This document shows positions 3,249 to 22,749 of a stretch of DNA of 24,000 nt, piece by piece (positions within the stretch are counted from its first letter, which is position 1; each line of letters opens with the position of its first letter). Under the pieces are notes generated by a model. It was not told the DNA's origin, ran no database searches, and saw only the letters and a program-made list of their open reading frames with translations. Location: positions 1 through 24,000 of the forward strand of contig CAZLYJ010000002.1 of NCBI GenBank assembly GCA_964563845.1, in the 5' to 3' direction. A program made the position numbers and the translations under genes. The stretch is from an uncultured Candidatus Saccharibacteria bacterium. GTDB taxonomy: Bacteria > Patescibacteriota > Minisyncoccia > UBA6257 > UBA9933.

Positions 3249-3319
3249 GCGGGATTAGTATAGTGGCAGTACGCTTGCTTCCCAAGCAAGGGGCGCGAGT
3301 TCGATTCTCGTATCCCGCT
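3249..3319 (+). tRNA. tRNA-Gly (anticodon CCC)
   Basis: 71-nt cloverleaf folded by hand: acceptor GCGGGAT/ATCCCGC, D arm GTAT-AGTGGCA-GTAC, anticodon arm CTTGC-TTCCCAA-GCAAG (anticodon CCC), T arm GCGAG-TTCGATT-CTCGT, discriminator T. CCA is not encoded. Confidence 0.9.
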
Positions 3320-6397: not shown

Positions 6398-6406
6398 ATA
6401 AACAAT

Positions 6407-6757
6407 CGGCAAGCTAGACGATAGCTCCGACGTATTGTCGGGGAGGAAAGTCCGGGCTCCCGTTCCGTATAAACGGAACAAAAGTATCCGCTAACAGCGG
6501 ACCACAGTAATGTGAGAGGTGCGAACAGAGACGGTTCGATTTGAAAGAATCGGACAGGCCCGATCCCAAGCTAGTCGGCCTAATTCTGCCATAGGGATAA
6601 AAAGCAGAAGTGAAACGGCTAAATCCTTACTGGGTGCAAGGTTGTGCTCCGACGATATGTCGGAGAATGCCGCTAGAGCTCGCGAGTAATCAAGGGCCCA
6701 GATAAATTATCGTTATCCGCCAATCGGCGGAACAGAACCCGGCTTATGGCTTGCCGG
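6407..6757 (+). ncRNA. rnpB: RNase P RNA, bacterial type A
   Basis: Universal P4 strands are present: GGAGGAAAGTCCGGGCTCC (about 6440-6460) and ACAGAACCCGGCTTAT (about 6731-6746). Terminal P1 pairing is CGGCAAGC (6407-6414) with GCTTGCCG (6749-6756). AGATAAATTATCG matches the conserved J18/2-P2 region. About 351 nt, followed by a T-run. Confidence 0.9.
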
Positions 6758-6767
6758 TTTTTTGTTT

Positions 6768-12681: not shown

Positions 12682-13305
12682 TTAAATAATCCATTTATTT
12701 TCCATGAGGAAATCTTTTACTTTTGTAAAAATCTTTTCATGCCCGACTGAATTAGGATGAAGACCATCTTCAAAATCTTCGTTATTTAACAAACCAAAAA
12801 TATTCAAATATAAAATATCATTTTTTTCGCAAACAATTTTCATAACCTCGTTATATTTTTTAATCTCCGTATTTACATAGTAAATATCCTCCCTTGATAC
12901 TGGCGCGGTTTTTGCCTCATTAACATTTTTAAATCCAATAAAAATTATATTAGGGGTGATATCTCTGGTCTTTTTAATAATTTCTTCTATATTTTTTCTA
13001 AATTGATCTATTGGAATTTGATTCGGACCATTTTTACTTTTTAGACAAGAGTCATTTCCGCCCGATTGAAAAATTAGGGCATCAGCTTCTCTGATTTTTG
13101 CTTCTGATTCAAATCTTTCAAGTATAGTTTCAGTCGTACCTCCGGAAATACTCAAATTATAGATTTCGGTTTCTCCGTTTGTTTTTTCATTAATATAAAA
13201 CCAGAGACGATTTACCCATCCGCCTTTTTCCATATCCCACGCGCCCCAAGCCGTGCTATCTCCAAATACACAAATGGACTCTATTTTTTTATTATCTTGA
13301 GCCAT
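12682..13305 (-). CDS. SGNH/GDSL-family hydrolase (lipase or acylhydrolase-like)
   Basis: 207 aa. Block I FGDSTAWG (catalytic Ser), block III GGND, block V DGLHPN (Asp-x-x-His). Confidence 0.8.
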   Translation of the reverse strand: MAQDNKKIESICVFGDSTAWGAWDMEKGGWVNRLWFYINEKTNGETEIYNLSISGGTTETILERFESEAKIREADALIFQSGGNDSCLKSKNGPNQIPIDQFRKNIEEIIKKTRDITPNIIFIGFKNVNEAKTAPVSREDIYYVNTEIKKYNEVMKIVCEKNDILYLNIFGLLNNEDFEDGLHPNSVGHEKIFTKVKDFLMENKWII

Positions 13306-13342
13306 AAATTTTTTACAAAAAAATTTGATTATTTTTCGCTAG

Positions 13343-13413
13343 CTGCCGGGCAGGGACTCGAACCCCGATACTGGGCTTCAAAGGCCCATGTCCTACCATT
13401 AGACGACCCGGCA
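13343..13413 (-). tRNA. tRNA-Gln (anticodon UUG)
   Basis: The reverse complement folds as a 71-nt cloverleaf: acceptor TGCCGGG/CCCGGCA (U1-A72), D arm GTCT-AATGGTA-GGAC, anticodon arm TGGGC-CTTTGAA-GCCCA (anticodon TTG), T arm CGGGG-TTCGAGT-CCCTG, discriminator G. No encoded CCA. Confidence 0.9.
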
Positions 13414-13471: not shown

Positions 13472-14704
13472 ATGCCTGAGGAAAAAATTTTAGACACTTC
13501 GTTAATAGAGAAAGAACTCAAAGCGGCGCCGGAGGGAATTTCAATTATCCGGCTTGTTGACGCTTTAATTACTCACGCTTTTAATTCTCGGGCTTCTGAT
13601 GTTCATATCGCGCCTGAAGAAAGCCGCGTCAGAGTGCGATTGAGAATAGACGGCACGCTTCACGATATTTTCGTTTTTCCCAAAGAAATTCAATCGGAAG
13701 TAATCACTAGAATAAAGGTGCTTTCCGGACTTCGAACGGACGAACATCAGGCGGCTCAAGATGGAAGATTCAAAATTCCCATTGAAGATATCGGTTATGT
13801 TGATGTTCGCGTTTCAATCGCTCCGACTTATTATGGCGAGAACGCGGTTTTAAGAATTTTATCCGAAAGAACGCAACTGGGTTTGGAACAATTGGGATTT
13901 TCAGAAAGGGACATGAGAATTGTCAAAGAATCCATTCGAAAACCTTATGGAATGATTTTAGCCACCGGCCCGACCGGTTCGGGAAAAACAACTTCGCTTT
14001 ACGCTATCATCAGAGTTTTAAACACGGATGAAGTTTCCATTATTACGATTGAGGACCCGATAGAATATTCCATCAAGGGCGTTGATCAGATTCAGGTTAA
14101 CGCGCAAACTGGTTTGACTTTTGCTCAGGGGTTGCGTTCAATTTTGCGGCAAGATCCGAATATCATAATGGTCGGCGAAATTAGGGATGAAGAAACAGCC
14201 GGCATCGCGGTGAACGCGGCTTTAACCGGACACTTGCTTCTTTCAACTATTCACACCAATGACGCGGCTACCACATTGCCGCGGCTTTTAGACATGAACA
14301 TTGAACCGTTTTTGATCGCTTCAACGATTAATATTGCCATAGGTCAACGGCTAGTCAGAAAAATTTGCCAAAATTGCAAAGCCAAAAAAGTTTTAACGGA
14401 CGCTGAATTTAAAAGTTTGTCTGAAGTTTTGCCTTTGGAAATTTTAGATAATCACCGCGAATTTTATAAAGGCAACGGCTGCGAAAAATGCGAAGGCGAC
14501 GGATATGACGGCAGAATCAGCATTTACGAGGTTTTGGAGGTGACGGAAAATATTAGAGAGTTGATTATGAAAAGGGTTAATTCCGCAGAAATTAAAGAGG
14601 CGGCAATTAAAGAGGGAATGACTACAATGCTTGAAGACGGCTTCAAGAAAGCGCTTAAGGGAATTACCACGATCGATGAAATTTTAAGAATTATTCACGA
14701 ATGA
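13472..14704 (+). CDS. pilB: Type IV pilus / type II secretion assembly ATPase (PilB/GspE/ComGA family), short form
   Basis: 410 aa. Walker A GPTGSGKTT, Asp box IITIEDPIE, Walker B IIMVGEIRD, His box GHLLLSTIHTND, and a tetracysteine Zn motif (CQNC...CEKC) characteristic of assembly rather than retraction ATPases. The long N-terminal domains of classical PilB/GspE are absent. Confidence 0.9.
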   Translation: MPEEKILDTSLIEKELKAAPEGISIIRLVDALITHAFNSRASDVHIAPEESRVRVRLRIDGTLHDIFVFPKEIQSEVITRIKVLSGLRTDEHQAAQDGRFKIPIEDIGYVDVRVSIAPTYYGENAVLRILSERTQLGLEQLGFSERDMRIVKESIRKPYGMILATGPTGSGKTTSLYAIIRVLNTDEVSIITIEDPIEYSIKGVDQIQVNAQTGLTFAQGLRSILRQDPNIIMVGEIRDEETAGIAVNAALTGHLLLSTIHTNDAATTLPRLLDMNIEPFLIASTINIAIGQRLVRKICQNCKAKKVLTDAEFKSLSEVLPLEILDNHREFYKGNGCEKCEGDGYDGRISIYEVLEVTENIRELIMKRVNSAEIKEAAIKEGMTTMLEDGFKKALKGITTIDEILRIIHE

Positions 14705-15803: not shown

Positions 15804-16238
15804 ATGACAAATAAAGGATTTACATTTATTGAAATTATGGTCGCGGTTGCTATTTTAATTTTAATTTTCGGCTTAGGAGGCGATATGGGATTAAATTTTT
15901 ATCGCCAATATTTAAGAGAACAATCAAAGAGCGATTTGACGACAATTTTAAAAAAAGCCCGTTCTCGAGCTATGGCTGACATCAATCAATCAAATCACGG
16001 CGTTTATGTGGGCGAAAATCAATATATTCTTTTTCAAGGGAGTTCTTATTCAAGCAGAACGACGGAATATGATCAGGCGTTTAACAAGGCGTCTGGAATT
16101 TCAGCTAGTGGTTTAGGCGAAATTGTTTTTGAGCGTTTTCGCGGCAACTCTTCCTCTTCCAGCACGATAACTTTAACGGATGTTTTCACCAATAAAACAA
16201 AAACGATAGAAATCAATTATGAAGGCAGAATCAATTAA
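15804..16238 (+). CDS. Prepilin-type minor pilin, GspH/FimU-like
   Basis: 144 aa. Class III signal MTNKG|FTFIEIMVAVAILILIF (Gly-1, Phe+1, Glu+5). The C-terminal beta-rich part ending TKTIEINYEGRI resembles GspH/FimU-type pseudopilins. Confidence 0.75.
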   Translation: MTNKGFTFIEIMVAVAILILIFGLGGDMGLNFYRQYLREQSKSDLTTILKKARSRAMADINQSNHGVYVGENQYILFQGSSYSSRTTEYDQAFNKASGISASGLGEIVFERFRGNSSSSSTITLTDVFTNKTKTIEINYEGRIN

Positions 16239-17589
16239 AGAAAAAGGACAATCAATTCTTGAGGTTTTAATCGCTTTGGGGGTTTTAGCGATGAGTTTAT
16301 CAGCCGCGATTTATTTATTTTTCAGCGGCCAATCACTATTGATTGATTCCCGTTTAAATCAAAAAGCGCTGTATTTAGCGCGGCAAAATATGGAAGAAGC
16401 GCGGTTTGGCGCCATTTCCAATTTTAATAATTTGCAAAGTTCTTCAGGTACGGAGAGTGGTTTTTTGAAAGAATTAATCGTTGAACAAACGGCGGGGGAT
16501 ACAAAAAAAATAATCAGCCGCGTTTCTTGGAATTCGACGCCGTTAAGAACTTCTAAAAAAGAACTTGTTACTTATTTGACTGATTGGCGAAGGGTGGGTG
16601 TTGGCGGCGCGGCCGGTGGAGGCGGTTCGGCGCCAACCGGAGATTGGATCAACCCGGAAACATTGACAAGCACTGATATTGGACCCGGCAATGAAGGCAC
16701 GGATATTGAAGTAAAAAGTTCTTACGCTTATTTGACAAGTATGGCTTCGGACGTTAATAAGCCGGACTTGTTTATTTTTAATGTTTCCGATCCCTCTTCA
16801 CCGATTTTAACAAGCCAAACAAATTTTGGAATTAAAGGATTAAATTCTTTAAATATTTTCGGTAATTATTTATACGCCGTTTCCGATGACGATAGTCAGG
16901 AATTTTTAATTATTGACATCTCCAATCCGGTTTCGCCGACAAAAATTTCGTCAGTTAATCTTTCCGGCAGTAGCAACGGAATGGCGGTTTTTTACAAAAA
17001 TAATTTTGCTTATGTCGGCCGGGCCAATGGCGCGGCGCAGGAATTCGTTATCATTGATGTTTCCAATCGTTCCAGTCCTCAATATTATTCCGGTTTATCC
17101 GGCGTAGGCGGAGAAATAAACGACATTTTTGTTTTTAATAATCGCGCTTATCTTGGGACAGAAGATGATAATAACGGTTTGACCATCATCAATGTCGGTG
17201 ATCCGGCAAATCCTTCCAAAATTGGCTCTTTAAATGTCGGTGAACATGTTTACAGCGCGTATCTTACCGCTGAATCTTCGGTATTTGTCGGCGGGAAGAC
17301 GAAATTTTATATTGCCGACGCTTCTAATCCGGTTAGCGTCAATGTGATTGGTTCAATTGCTACCGGCGGAAAAGTGCATGATGTTGTAACGGCCGGAACA
17401 TTGGCTTTCCTGGCAACCGGCAATTCCACTAAAGAATTTCAAGTCATTAATTTCGCCACTTTAAGCAATCCAATTCTTAATTCTTCTTTTAATTTCCCTC
17501 AGCAAGCGACCGGCGTCGATTATTTAAATAATCTTATTTATATGTCTGTGCGCAGCAATGACGCGTTAAGAATTATCACTTCACAATGA
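16219..17589 (+). CDS. PilV-like minor pilin fused to an LVIVD-repeat beta-propeller
   Basis: 456 aa. Prepilin-like N-terminus MKAESIKEKG|QSILEVLIALGVLAMSL (Gly-1, Glu+5), a pilin-sized domain to about aa 125, a Gly-rich linker VGVGGAAGGGGSAPT (aa 126-140), then about 7 repeats of the LVIVD type. Overlaps the upstream gene by 20 nt and the downstream gene by ATGA. Confidence 0.75.
   Translation: MKAESIKEKGQSILEVLIALGVLAMSLSAAIYLFFSGQSLLIDSRLNQKALYLARQNMEEARFGAISNFNNLQSSSGTESGFLKELIVEQTAGDTKKIISRVSWNSTPLRTSKKELVTYLTDWRRVGVGGAAGGGGSAPTGDWINPETLTSTDIGPGNEGTDIEVKSSYAYLTSMASDVNKPDLFIFNVSDPSSPILTSQTNFGIKGLNSLNIFGNYLYAVSDDDSQEFLIIDISNPVSPTKISSVNLSGSSNGMAVFYKNNFAYVGRANGAAQEFVIIDVSNRSSPQYYSGLSGVGGEINDIFVFNNRAYLGTEDDNNGLTIINVGDPANPSKIGSLNVGEHVYSAYLTAESSVFVGGKTKFYIADASNPVSVNVIGSIATGGKVHDVVTAGTLAFLATGNSTKEFQVINFATLSNPILNSSFNFPQQATGVDYLNNLIYMSVRSNDALRIITSQ
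16699..17586 (+). repeat. About seven tandem protein-level LVIVD-type repeats (40-45 aa each)
   Basis: Repeat cores: YAYLTS..LFIFNVSDPSSP, YLYAVS..FLIIDISNPVSP, FAYVGR..FVIIDVSNRSSP, RAYLGT..LTIINVGDPANP, SVFVGG..FYIADASNPVSV, LAFLAT..FQVINFATLSNP, LIYMSV..LRIITSQ. The repeats are diverged at DNA level. Confidence 0.7.
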
Positions 17590-18071
17590 CAAAAGGATTT
17601 ACTTTAATAGAAATTCTTATTTATCTGGTTTTGGTTTCTTTAATCGCGACTATTTCCATTGCCGCGGTTTATCCGTTAATAGATAATTATCATCGCAGTC
17701 AGGCACTATTGGACATCGAGAGCGAAACTAATTTTTTAATGAGAAAAATAAATTGGGCGCTAATGGGAGCTTATGCAATTAATCAGCCGGCATCCGGCAG
17801 CACCTCAACGATTCTTTCCATAAATAAAGAGGGATTTTCTCAAAATCCAATAGCCTTTGATGTCAGCGGCGGAAATCTTAGAATTTCTTTGGCCGGCGCG
17901 GAACCGATTGTTTTGAATAATACTAATGTTAAAATAGAAAAAGCGGAGTTTGAAAATATTTTCCAATCTGGCTTGCCGGCGTCAGTTGGCGTTGAATTGT
18001 CGGTTAAACATTCAAGTTCAAATTCAAACGCTTCAACGACGATTAAAGTAAAAATAGGATTAAGGAAATAA
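17586..18071 (+). CDS. Prepilin-type minor pilin, PilW/GspJ-like
   Basis: 161 aa. MTKG|FTLIEILIYLVLVSLIA (Gly-1, Phe+1, Glu+5). The subfamily assignment is by position and size only. Confidence 0.7.
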   Translation: MTKGFTLIEILIYLVLVSLIATISIAAVYPLIDNYHRSQALLDIESETNFLMRKINWALMGAYAINQPASGSTSTILSINKEGFSQNPIAFDVSGGNLRISLAGAEPIVLNNTNVKIEKAEFENIFQSGLPASVGVELSVKHSSSNSNASTTIKVKIGLRK

Positions 18072-18082
18072 TTAAAAATTAT

Positions 18083-18457
18083 ATGGAAAACGGTTATCTC
18101 GCCATTACTTCGGCGATCATTCTTTCAATAATCGCGATGGTTCTAGCGGTCGGATTAAGTTTTTCTTCTTATTTCGGTTTGTCCGATATTCAGGACGCGA
18201 ATTTGAAAGAAACAAGTGTTGCGCTTGCCGAGGCCTGCGTTGATAAAGCGCTTCTTAGTTTGGCTCAAAATATTAATTACGCCGGCAATGAAATTGTCGC
18301 GGTGGGCAGCAGCACCTGTTCAATATTGCCAATGGAAACATCTTCCACTTATAAAATTATCAAAGCGGGAGCTGATTTCAGCGGCGCGGTCACTAATTTA
18401 AAAATAACGGTGGTAACCTCTTCCCCCCTTGAAATTTTAAAGTGGGAAGAATATTAA
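18083..18457 (+). CDS. Pilin-like protein lacking Glu+5, PilX/GspK-like (tentative)
   Basis: 124 aa. MENG|YLAITSAIILSIIAMVLAVGL is a hydrophobic N-terminal helix with Thr instead of Glu at +5. The ALAEACVDKALLSLAQ segment resembles the PilX N-terminal A-x-x-AEAG-x-x-x-A motif. Confidence 0.5.
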   Translation: MENGYLAITSAIILSIIAMVLAVGLSFSSYFGLSDIQDANLKETSVALAEACVDKALLSLAQNINYAGNEIVAVGSSTCSILPMETSSTYKIIKAGADFSGAVTNLKITVVTSSPLEILKWEEY

Positions 18458-18459
18458 AA

Positions 18460-18921
18460 ATGATTAAACAAGGATTTACTCTTATGGAAATTTTAATTGT
18501 TATAGCTATTATGGCGATTTTGACGACTTCGGTATTGCTAATTATAAACCCTTTTCAGCAGTTCGCTCAGGCGCGCAATAATCAGCGCTTGTCTCACATT
18601 ATGACGATATTAAATTCAGTCAGCCAATATATGACGGATAATAACAATAGTCTTCCGTCGGCTATCAGTGGACTTGCCACAAGCACTTTCAAGGAAATTT
18701 GCATGACTGACGCCGCCAGTTGTTCCAATCTCATTGATCTTTCAGTTTTAACAAACAATGAACTTTATTTGGTTTCTTTGCCTATTGATCCGTCATGTTC
18801 AACAAACGGTTGCGGTTCGGCTTCGGGTACGGGCTATTGGATTTCTCGAAGCGCCAATAATAGAATAACGGCTTACGCCACTTCTTCGGAATTAGGAAAA
18901 GACATTAGAGCGACTCGATAG
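18460..18921 (+). CDS. Type IV pilin (candidate major subunit)
   Basis: I prefer ATG 18460 (leader MIKQG|FTLMEILIVIAIMAIL) over the tracked GTG at 18442, because it gives a typical short prepilin leader and starts 2 nt after the upstream stop. The QARNNQR motif after the helix and four Cys in the C-terminal half (possibly two disulfides) are typical of major pilins. Confidence 0.8.
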   Translation: MIKQGFTLMEILIVIAIMAILTTSVLLIINPFQQFAQARNNQRLSHIMTILNSVSQYMTDNNNSLPSAISGLATSTFKEICMTDAASCSNLIDLSVLTNNELYLVSLPIDPSCSTNGCGSASGTGYWISRSANNRITAYATSSELGKDIRATR

Positions 18922-21888: not shown

Positions 21889-22749
21889 ATGTTTTCCCGT
21901 CGTCATTTAATTTTATTGCTGGTTTTCCTGGCGATTTTTGATTTTTTCGTTTGGTCGGAAATTGTTTTTGGAAGGGAGAGAACCACTAATAAAAATTCAG
22001 AAGTTTATTTTTTGGATATAGGTCAGGGCGACAGCGAATTGATAAATTTGGCCGGCGGAGTCCAGATTTTAATAGACGGCGGCCCGAACAAAAAAATTTT
22101 GGATGAACTGGCTTCAATTTTGCCCGTAACCGATCGCTATATAGATTTAGTAATTCTATCTCATCCTCAATATGACCATTTCGCCGGCTTGATTGATGTT
22201 TTAAAACGGTATCAAATCGGCGCTTTTATTTATAACGGCCGAAATGGCGAAATAAAAGCTTTTGAGGATTTGGAAAAAGTTTTGAAAGAGAATAAAATTA
22301 AAACAATTGTTTTGGTTCAAGGAGATAAAATCAAATATCGGAATAATCAATTGGATATTATTTCTCCAGCTTCAGATTTTTTGAAAAGCAAAGAATTAAA
22401 CGACACCAGTTTGGTAATAAGTTTACAAAGCGCGGGAGCGAAATTTTTATTTACCGGCGATATCGGTTTTGCGGTGGAAAATTATTTAGCGAAAAATTTT
22501 GACCTTAAAAGCGATGTTTTGAAAGTGGCTCATCATGGTTCAAGATATTCTTCGGGCGAGGAATTTTTAAAAAAGGTGAATCCGAAAATTTCGGTTATTG
22601 AAGTAGGTAAAAATTCTTACGGCCATCCGACGAGTCAGGCGTTAAACGGATTAGCTTCGGTCGGTTCGCGCGTTTTTCGCACGGATTATGACGGAACAAT
22701 TAAATTAATAATCAATGGAAATAAAATTGATATTTTAAAGAGAAAATGA
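21889..22749 (+). CDS. Membrane-anchored ComEC/Rec2-type metallo-beta-lactamase-fold hydrolase (stand-alone domain)
   Basis: 286 aa. One N-terminal TM helix (LILLLVFLAIFDFFVWSEIVF), then ComEC C-terminal-domain signatures: YFLDIGQGDSELI, ILIDGGP, LSHPQYDHFAGL, FTGD, VAHHGS, NSYGHP, FRTDYDGTI. The ComEC channel (Competence) and OB-fold domains are absent. Confidence 0.78.
   Translation: MFSRRHLILLLVFLAIFDFFVWSEIVFGRERTTNKNSEVYFLDIGQGDSELINLAGGVQILIDGGPNKKILDELASILPVTDRYIDLVILSHPQYDHFAGLIDVLKRYQIGAFIYNGRNGEIKAFEDLEKVLKENKIKTIVLVQGDKIKYRNNQLDIISPASDFLKSKELNDTSLVISLQSAGAKFLFTGDIGFAVENYLAKNFDLKSDVLKVAHHGSRYSSGEEFLKKVNPKISVIEVGKNSYGHPTSQALNGLASVGSRVFRTDYDGTIKLIINGNKIDILKRK

Follow-up and report, generated by a model that had tools for sequence, protein, structure and literature searches.

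A minor pilin fused to a predicted seven-bladed LVIVD beta-propeller in the core pilus operon of Parcubacteria-type Patescibacteria: a candidate pilus-tip head

Modular pilins, in which a domain that is not specific to pili is grafted through a short linker onto a pilin module, were defined by Raynaud et al. in 2021 (PMC8179133). In Streptococcus sanguinis the modular pilins PilB (vWA module) and PilC (lectin module) carry adhesive modules that were modelled at the pilus tip (PMC8179133). In Nanosynbacter lyticus TM7x (Saccharibacteria), Grossman et al. (2024) described the minor pilin PilX2, which bears a seven-bladed RCC1 propeller, has a non-canonical leader and was proposed to be a tip adhesin; its deletion lowered host binding from 10.6% to 4.6%, filaments being still formed (PMC11623550). 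A seven-bladed propeller is also found at the tip in PilY1/PilC, a non-pilin protein combining adhesion and biogenesis, which is held there by the PilHIJK complex, non-covalently, through a 12-residue C-terminal plug that binds PilK (bioRxiv 10.64898/2026.09.18.752573); in PilY1/PilC the propeller is the conserved carrier (IPR008707) and the N-terminal part the variable effector (PMC8179133). Here we analyse a gene in which a minor-pilin module is fused to a propeller made of LVIVD repeats (positions 16219-17589, 456 aa). It lies in a stretch of 24,000 nt of an uncultured Patescibacteria genome deposited as Candidatus Saccharibacteria (assembly GCA_964563845.1, contig CAZLYJ010000002.1, positions 1 to 24,000 of the forward strand), hereafter called the window.

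The fusion is like PilX2 in being a Patescibacteria minor pilin whose gene lies among those of other minor pilins, and in having a non-canonical leader and a C-terminal propeller, here a predicted one, of seven blades. It differs in the repeats, which are LVIVD instead of RCC1 (no RCC1 match at E<=1 in Pfam, PilX2 being compared by its description only), and in the genetic setting: PilX2 is part of a second pilus, which is non-essential and has its pilin genes apart from those of the machinery, whereas here a single core operon contains the gene beside those of the ATPase and the platform protein. With PilY1/PilC it shares a seven-bladed propeller that is associated, in this family putatively, with a four-minor-pilin tip complex, but in this case the propeller sits covalently on the pilin module and the C-terminus is simply the last predicted propeller strand (aa 450-454). 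We rejected membership of the PilY1 family, as Pfam gave no match to a PilC/PilY1 propeller at E<=1 and the PDB profile search returned no chain of PilY1; furthermore, the Pfam and NCBIfam scans of the window proteins returned no PilY1/PilC-type protein, in agreement with an earlier note on this DNA, made from the letters alone, according to which the propeller is fused to the pilin without a separate PilY1. Like GspK, the fusion would be a tip-complex minor pilin with an extra bulky domain (PMC8179133); unlike GspK, in which an alpha-domain is inserted in the K pilin fold, here the K-like protein is minimal and the domain is appended by a linker to the subunit in the I position.

With the modular pilins of Raynaud et al. 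the fusion shares the plan of pilin module, short linker and grafted domain not specific to pili, tip display being predicted. For PilB and PilC, structures and binding have been determined by experiment, whereas the present family is known from sequence and prediction. Dataset S1 of that work contains 30 proteins with IPR012902 followed by one to thirteen repeats of IPR013211, which is the LVIVD repeat, and an 860-aa pilin of Falkowbacteria with 12 LVIVD copies was reported as "of unknown function" (PMC8179133). Those entries were only counted, and the present family mostly escapes such InterPro-based censuses, which therefore undercount it, because its leader, with Gln at +1, falls below the threshold of the N_methyl profile. 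In the literature we found no paper characterising a pilin-LVIVD fusion (LVIVD and pilins occurred together only in an unrelated preprint) and nothing on Parcubacteria propeller pilins beyond Raynaud et al.; a transcriptome paper on Minisyncoccus/Yanofskybacteria mentions pilins and no propeller. The earlier note, which knew of no characterised fusion of this kind, was right to that extent but overstated the novelty, since pilin-LVIVD proteins had been catalogued in 2021 (PMC8179133) and a propeller pilin had been studied genetically in TM7x (PMC11623550). Propeller-bearing modular pilins are already known, and the present protein is a new, very widespread member of that class, which stands apart by the LVIVD family of its propeller, by its place in the I slot of the core operon and by its near-universal presence in Parcubacteria-type lineages.

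The fusion is genuine and conserved, and joins a minor-pilin module to an LVIVD propeller that modelling predicts to be closed and seven-bladed. The open reading frame (ORF) list and the translation gave the ORF, its length, the leader and the linker exactly where the earlier note had placed them, and the same 456-aa product is encoded in three independent ENA assemblies. A search of 5.8 billion proteins returned 409 relatives at E<=1e-3; nearly all of the best 120 were 440-490 aa long, with a query coverage of 96-100% and an identity of 38-91%. A scan of one genome per species showed that at least 118 species genomes encode full-length relatives. Because the ORF is identical in three assemblies, full-length relatives are widespread and the frame of the linker is recognisable among them, we excluded a misassembled or frameshifted join in the junction region (16590-16640), which the earlier note had wanted checked.

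The N-terminus of the fusion reads MKAESIKEKG↓QSILEVLIALGVLAMSL (the arrow marks the predicted cleavage site, with the frame G↓QSILE), hence it has the traits of a class III prepilin: a short leader ending with Gly-1, Glu+5 and the hydrophobic start of a long alpha1 helix. Gly-1 and Glu+5 are the residues that matter for type IV prepilin processing and assembly. Among 85 family members, in which the median leader length is 11 residues, Gly-1 is present in 81 (Ala in the remaining 4), Glu+5 likewise in 81 (Asp in 4) and Gln+1 in 79. As a speculation, a pyroglutamate formed from the N-terminal Gln after cleavage could neutralise the N-terminus without N-methylation.

An AlphaFold2 model was built from the alignment of 85 homologues (mean predicted local distance difference test, pLDDT, 91.4). 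Behind the leader it has the helix and the four strands of a classical pilin "lollipop", with the N-terminal helix packed on an antiparallel beta-sheet; over aa 11-120 the pLDDT of 10-residue blocks is 78-95 in the full-length model, and the pilin module modelled alone has a mean of 90.9. Against the models of the minor-pilin classes, the fusion of the window matched PilV (E 0.0053, 17.2 bits with a cut-off of 52.2), ComGE (E 0.016) and GspI (E 0.08), all sub-threshold. The sub-threshold matches of the module in 57 family members were to ComGE (27), PilV (26), GspI (9) and XpsI (4), mostly over alpha1. By fold, Foldseek with the pilin module alone against the PDB gave nothing at E<0.001, the EpsI chains 2ret_C and 3cfi_A being among the weak matches (E 0.19-0.31, target-normalised TM-score 0.53-0.55), and a PDB sequence-profile search with the module gave nothing significant. 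The module has the size class of GspI/PilV/ComGE, and we consider the PilV/GspI label reasonable but unproven. A search with the profile of the pilin module for other grafted domains (e.g. RCC1 in Saccharibacteria) returned 2 matches only.

The linker contains the sequence VGVGGAAGGGGSAPT at aa 126-140 (nt 16594-16638) and is predicted to be disordered around aa 127-134, where the pLDDT is <50. In the family, 13-23 residues, 30% of which are Gly, separate the conserved Trp123 and Gly141, and the frame GGDxGG...GDW is kept in the alignment. Downstream of it, Pfam LVIVD (PF08309) matched in 4 stretches with 67.7 bits, well above its gathering score of 20.2 (E 5.5e-19), and in NCBIfam the "choice-of-anchor B" family, which contains LVIVD, was matched in part (E 3.2e-10). 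Seven repeat units of 42-48 aa, with the signature ...F/L-x-I-I-D/N-V/I-S-N/D-P-x-x-P, could be written out by eye, as many as the earlier note had counted approximately. The closed seven-bladed propeller that it expected from structure prediction was also obtained, as the model arranges the 28 strands of this region in 7 blades of 4, with a pLDDT of 91-97 in 10-residue blocks. Foldseek against the PDB matched seven-bladed WD40 propellers, e.g. beta-TrCP (E 5.6e-11) and Ciao1 (target-normalised TM-score 0.76), and also the Sphingobium phosphotriesterase/haloalkylphosphorus hydrolase 5hrm (E 1.7e-10; sequence profile E 0.008).

The propeller of the window is acidic (isoelectric point, pI, 4.35; net charge -14), and so are those of all the 110 members checked, with pI values of 4.05-4.76 and net charges of -9 to -30. 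Its most conserved segments are its N- and C-terminal ends, GDWxNPxTLGSxDLGPGNxATD and VRSNDALRIITS, respectively.

The gene is part of a compact pilus cluster (Table 1), the common order of which is ATPase, platform protein, H-like pilin, fusion, J-like pilin, K-like pilin lacking Glu5 and major pilin. All seven genes were found in 58 of 80 related loci, most of the remaining ones being interrupted by contig ends, and the order was nearly always identical in the loci listed. The sequence FimU-like, fusion, PilW-like, PilX-like, pilin given in the earlier note is correct, with the T2SSE ATPase and the T2SSF platform protein preceding it. In the window and in most related loci the fusion is the second gene of an H-I-J-K cassette in which K lacks Glu5 and the J class is placed by position. 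This set, judged by sequence, matches the "core" quartet of minor pilins, H-I-J-K, found in type II secretion, type IVa pili and Com pili, and puts the fusion in the I position; the single proteins are assigned to their classes by sub-threshold matches. The end of the H-like gene overlaps the start of the fusion by 20 nt, the start of the J-like gene overlaps its stop by 4 nt (ATGA) and the other gaps in the cluster are 5-24 nt, which suggests translational coupling.

As regards the single neighbours, the ATPase matched GspE (E 5.7e-148) and PilB (E 5.5e-146) in NCBIfam, both below the equivalog cut-offs and over the C-terminal ~390 positions only. For minor pilin 1 the N_methyl score is above the gathering score, the match to GspH is weak (E 0.13) and that to ComGD has an E-value of 3.7e-6 over aa 3-135; its copies listed from related loci have canonical G↓F(T/S)xxE leaders. 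The class models are unspecific for the J-like pilin (among 56 members, ComGE 18, ComGF 15, GspH 12 and GspJ-type 8). The K-like pilin had no match to Pfam N_methyl and nothing significant in the PDB sequence-profile search; its family has the leader consensus G↓Y-I-A-I-x, with no Glu at +5, and GspK was the only recurrent family, in 5 of 59 members and weakly (best E 2.2e-4). Cys52 and Cys79 (numbered as in the K-like protein of the window) are invariant in the K-like family, which points to a conserved disulfide in a set of proteins that otherwise has few Cys residues. The major pilin has a GspG/GspH-type N-terminus; we chose its ATG at 18460 by comparison with the related locus L001, the ORF list starting at a GTG at 18442. 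In public gene calls (locus L081, 9667-10020 and 12266-12703) the H-like pilin has 117 or 133 aa and the major pilin 145 aa, and the class III leaders are lost; the full ORFs have 144 aa (G↓FTFIE) and 153 aa (G↓FTLME), respectively. Such shortened calls would hide both pilins from motif-based annotation.

In two loci labelled Uhrbacteria (L049 8282-9313, L067 8369-9550) and in a similarly arranged one (L079, 5816-6853), a second, shorter T2SSE-family ATPase, possibly PilT-like, is encoded after the K-like gene on the opposite (minus) strand, with E-values of 1e-27 to 1e-32 to the ATPase of the window, which is without a second one. In the same three loci the gene of the major pilin is upstream of the operon, not downstream.

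The relatives of the fusion belong, where named, to Wolfe-, Lipton- and Brennerbacteria or to "Paceibacterota" in the best 120 matches of the protein search, to which the genome scan added Jorgensen-, Harrison-, Colwell-, Azam-, Uhr- and Falkowbacteria. The named ones among the 118 genomes are all Patescibacteria, except for a few unclassified or "Gammaproteobacteria" labels; the labels "uncultured Saccharibacteria" and "Gammaproteobacteria" on third-party assemblies are probably automatic. On these sequence data, the seven-gene cluster is conserved across Parcubacteria-type Patescibacteria, in nine lineages (Wolfe-, Lipton-, Jorgensen-, Brenner-, Harrison-, Colwell-, Azam-, Uhr- and Falkowbacteria). 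We measured conservation as the mean pairwise identity over 58 complete loci (Table 1); that of the major pilin is the second highest of the cluster.

The profile of the family, searched against 1.84 billion cluster representatives, matched 57,163 proteins at E<=1e-3, of which 13,972 remained at E<=1e-30. The majority are LVIVD propellers from other contexts, and about one third of the best 150 are members of the family, 450-510 aa long and with a single matching stretch. Giant proteins of 1,000-6,900 aa (P0121-P0135 and others) have up to 18 stretches matching the profile; one of 1,998 aa (P0124) begins with a pilin module of a similar kind (MNGNKG↓FLLVELL), behind which there are many LVIVD repeats. 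As for other variants, P0213 has an extra C-terminal extension of ~108 aa, and P0140 (604 aa) has a response-regulator-like extension of ~135 aa before the pilin leader, which is probably a merged gene call or an upstream read-through.

Table 1. Features of the pilus cluster in the window (identity: mean pairwise identity of the protein or module)
Feature	Coordinates	Strand	Basis	Identity
Assembly ATPase, PilB/GspE-like, 410 aa, without the N-terminal domains of PilB/GspE	13472..14704	+	Pfam T2SSE E 3.4e-125	60%
Platform protein, PilC/GspF-like, 356 aa	14728..15798	+	Pfam T2SSF E 1.9e-55 (two stretches); NCBIfam GspF E 1.2e-83	44%
Minor pilin 1 (H-like), GspH/FimU/ComGD-like, 144 aa, leader MTNKG↓FTFIE	15804..16238	+	N_methyl 22.7 bits	35%
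Modular minor pilin (pilin module, linker, predicted seven-bladed LVIVD propeller), 456 aa, ATG start	16219..17589	+	ORF list, Pfam, AlphaFold2	
Predicted class III leader, aa 1-10, MKAESIKEKG	16219..16248	+	Gly-1/Gln+1/Glu+5 family conservation; cleavage after Gly10 inferred	
Pilin module, aa 11-121 (alpha1 helix 13-67, four-stranded antiparallel sheet 75-121)	16249..16581	+	AlphaFold2	34%
Flexible Gly/Ser/Thr/Pro-rich linker, aa 122-146 (includes aa 126-140)	16582..16656	+	AlphaFold2 pLDDT, family alignment	
Predicted closed seven-bladed LVIVD beta-propeller, aa 147-454, 28 strands	16657..17580	+	AlphaFold2, repeat alignment, Foldseek	42%
Minor pilin 3 (J-like), GspJ/PilW/ComGF-like by position, 161 aa, leader MTKG↓FTLIE	17586..18071	+	N_methyl 23.5 bits	30%
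Minor pilin 4 (K-like), GspK/PilX/ComGG-like, 124 aa, non-canonical leader MENG↓YLAIT, no Glu5	18083..18457	+	Synteny, weak GspK	34%
Probable major pilin, 153 aa, leader MIKQG↓FTLMEIL	18460..18921	+	N_methyl 28.5 bits, best of the cluster	55%

We consider it fairly probable, at roughly 60%, that the product of the gene is a modular type IV minor pilin carrying the propeller as a head in a four-minor-pilin tip complex. The tip-complex logic comes from the partners: the K-like neighbour is without Glu5 and matches only GspK, the H-like one matches ComGD/GspH and the module of the fusion ComGE/PilV/GspI. Display at the tip and adhesion are plausible from the position of the gene, the fold of the product and the precedent of PilX2 in TM7x. 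In the mechanism that we propose, a prepilin peptidase would cleave the fusion after Gly10, and the four minor pilins would form a priming complex and end up as the pilus tip, like GspHIJK of type II secretion and PilHIJK of type IVa pili. The pilin module would anchor the propeller covalently in this complex, and the flexible linker of ~25 residues would let a propeller of ~4-5 nm sit beside or above the small K-like cap, so that about one propeller per filament would be present, at the tip, as a ligand-binding head. The covalent fusion would hence replace the non-covalent anchoring of PilY1/PilC, with no separate PilY1. High conservation together with acidity suggests that the target is shared widely and is not a nucleic acid (for example a protein, a surface glycan or a surface bridged by cations), and that it is not a strain-specific receptor.

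Some points weigh against this proposal. The Pfam N_methyl profile (PF07963) gave the fusion 16.8 bits, under its gathering score of 21.2, and a precomputed PF07963 match is present in only 1 (P0085) of the 120 best homologues, probably because of the Gln at +1, an unusual residue where Phe or Met is usual. The assignment of the module to the I class stays below threshold in the sequence comparison and lacks significance in the fold search. Of what the earlier note had described as a PilV/GspI-type minor pilin, the leader and, as a prediction, the pilin fold are borne out, but the class is weaker than it stated; similarly, the Pfam check that it proposed put LVIVD above threshold and the prepilin N-terminal methylation domain below it. 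Moreover, the window contains no gene for a prepilin peptidase, PilM/N/O or PilT, and we assume the remaining machinery to be encoded elsewhere in the genome. LVIVD propellers in general are without an established function (PMC2447325, PMC10210494). Finally, the propeller (42%) is more conserved than every minor-pilin module (30-35%), which is atypical of receptors tracking diverse hosts and fits a structural role equally. In fact, a propeller more conserved than its own stalk suggests either a conserved ligand or a structural/priming role, and not a fast-evolving, host-specific adhesin.

A serious rival is that the propeller is mainly a structural cap or a priming factor (the biogenesis half of the PilY1/PilC function), with an adhesive ligand absent or secondary. 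We judge this unlikely as the principal role, even if several observations agree with it: copies of the core operon hardly ever lack the gene, the conservation of the propeller comes near that of the platform protein (42% vs 44%) and is strongest at its two ends, the K-like cap is so tiny (124 aa) in comparison with GspK that another bulky element could substitute for it, and PilC/PilY1 is needed for biogenesis because it stabilises PilK (bioRxiv 10.64898/2026.09.18.752573). Nevertheless, the propeller pilin of TM7x is dispensable for filament extrusion (PMC11623550), and a rigid cap would hardly be expected at the end of a long flexible linker; the structural and the adhesive role are, besides, not mutually exclusive.

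A Com-like DNA-uptake pilus with the propeller as the DNA receptor seems to us quite improbable. The order ATPase, platform protein and D/E/F/G-like minor pilins does resemble comG, ComGD and ComGE being the best, though weak, matches; a protein like the C-terminal part of ComEC, with a metallo-beta-lactamase (MBL) fold, is encoded 3 kb downstream, and Patescibacteria are generally known to rely on imported nucleotides. However, the acidity of the propeller, without exception in the 110 members, is contrary to the electropositive surface that a DNA-binding pilin would be expected to have and argues against DNA binding, and pilin mutants of the second type IV pilus (T4P-2) of TM7x, pilX2 included, keep wild-type competence (PMC11623550).

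Even less probable is that the propeller is an enzyme, e.g. a hydrolase, delivered on the pilus tip. The hydrolase 5hrm is its only solved relative outside the WD40 propellers, and pilin-peptidase architectures were listed by Raynaud et al. (PMC8179133); yet the match to 5hrm is weak and partial (profile positions 232-346), no catalytic family was matched in Pfam or NCBIfam and the nearly invariant residues are mostly the structural motif of the repeat. We give slightly less credit still to an uncleaved signal anchor that would hold the propeller at the cell surface outside any filament: the leader does depart from the N_methyl profile, as said above, but the near-invariance of Gly-1 and Glu+5, the complete pilin fold predicted with high confidence and the flanking of the gene by other minor-pilin genes, seen at almost every related locus, are all contrary to it. 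An artefactual fusion by a frameshift or a chimeric join, for which the low-complexity linker is the sole ground of suspicion, is ruled out by the three identical assemblies, by the full-length relatives in hundreds of contigs and by the conserved linker frame.

Other features of the window lie outside the pilus cluster. The MBL-fold protein is a stand-alone one of 286 aa (21889-22749, plus strand), similar to the C-terminal domain of ComEC/Rec2 (NCBIfam E 1.1e-34, below the cut-off). Upstream of the operon there is a divergent gene for an SGNH/GDSL-type lipase/esterase (12682-13305, minus strand), also found in other assemblies of the same organism (L082 8-481), and a tRNA-Gln(TTG) (13342-13413, minus strand) just before the pilus ATPase gene; a tRNA-Gly(CCC) is at 3249-3319 (plus strand). 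A bacterial class A RNase P RNA (6406-6761, plus strand; Rfam RF00010, 119 bits, E 2.9e-36) accounts for a local rise of the GC content to 0.46.

How ultra-small, mostly uncultivated Patescibacteria find and hold a host is little understood outside Saccharibacteria. The fusion is a well-defined, highly conserved candidate, predicted to be exposed at the surface and encoded in the core pilus operon in many Parcubacteria-type lineages. It will not surprise specialists, but it offers a concrete entry to the study of how a large, uncultivated radiation attaches to hosts. It would represent a third way to place a propeller on a pilus tip, after the non-covalent plug of PilY1 and the RCC1 fusion of PilX2 in TM7x. 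The isolated propeller could be expressed for glycan and protein binding screens, and used as a tag in cryo-electron tomography or in host pull-downs; it would also give the abundant LVIVD repeat its first testable biological context. We add, as a tentative and rather doubtful generalisation, that the core, and possibly the only, type IV filament of Parcubacteria-type bacteria may always bear a covalently attached LVIVD propeller on its I-position minor pilin, so that one subunit would merge the two jobs of PilY1/PilC (stabilising and priming the tip complex and binding the target) and, being so conserved, would recognise a ligand common to many hosts or substrates. If this were true, much of the Candidate Phyla Radiation would use the propeller as a general head for attachment.

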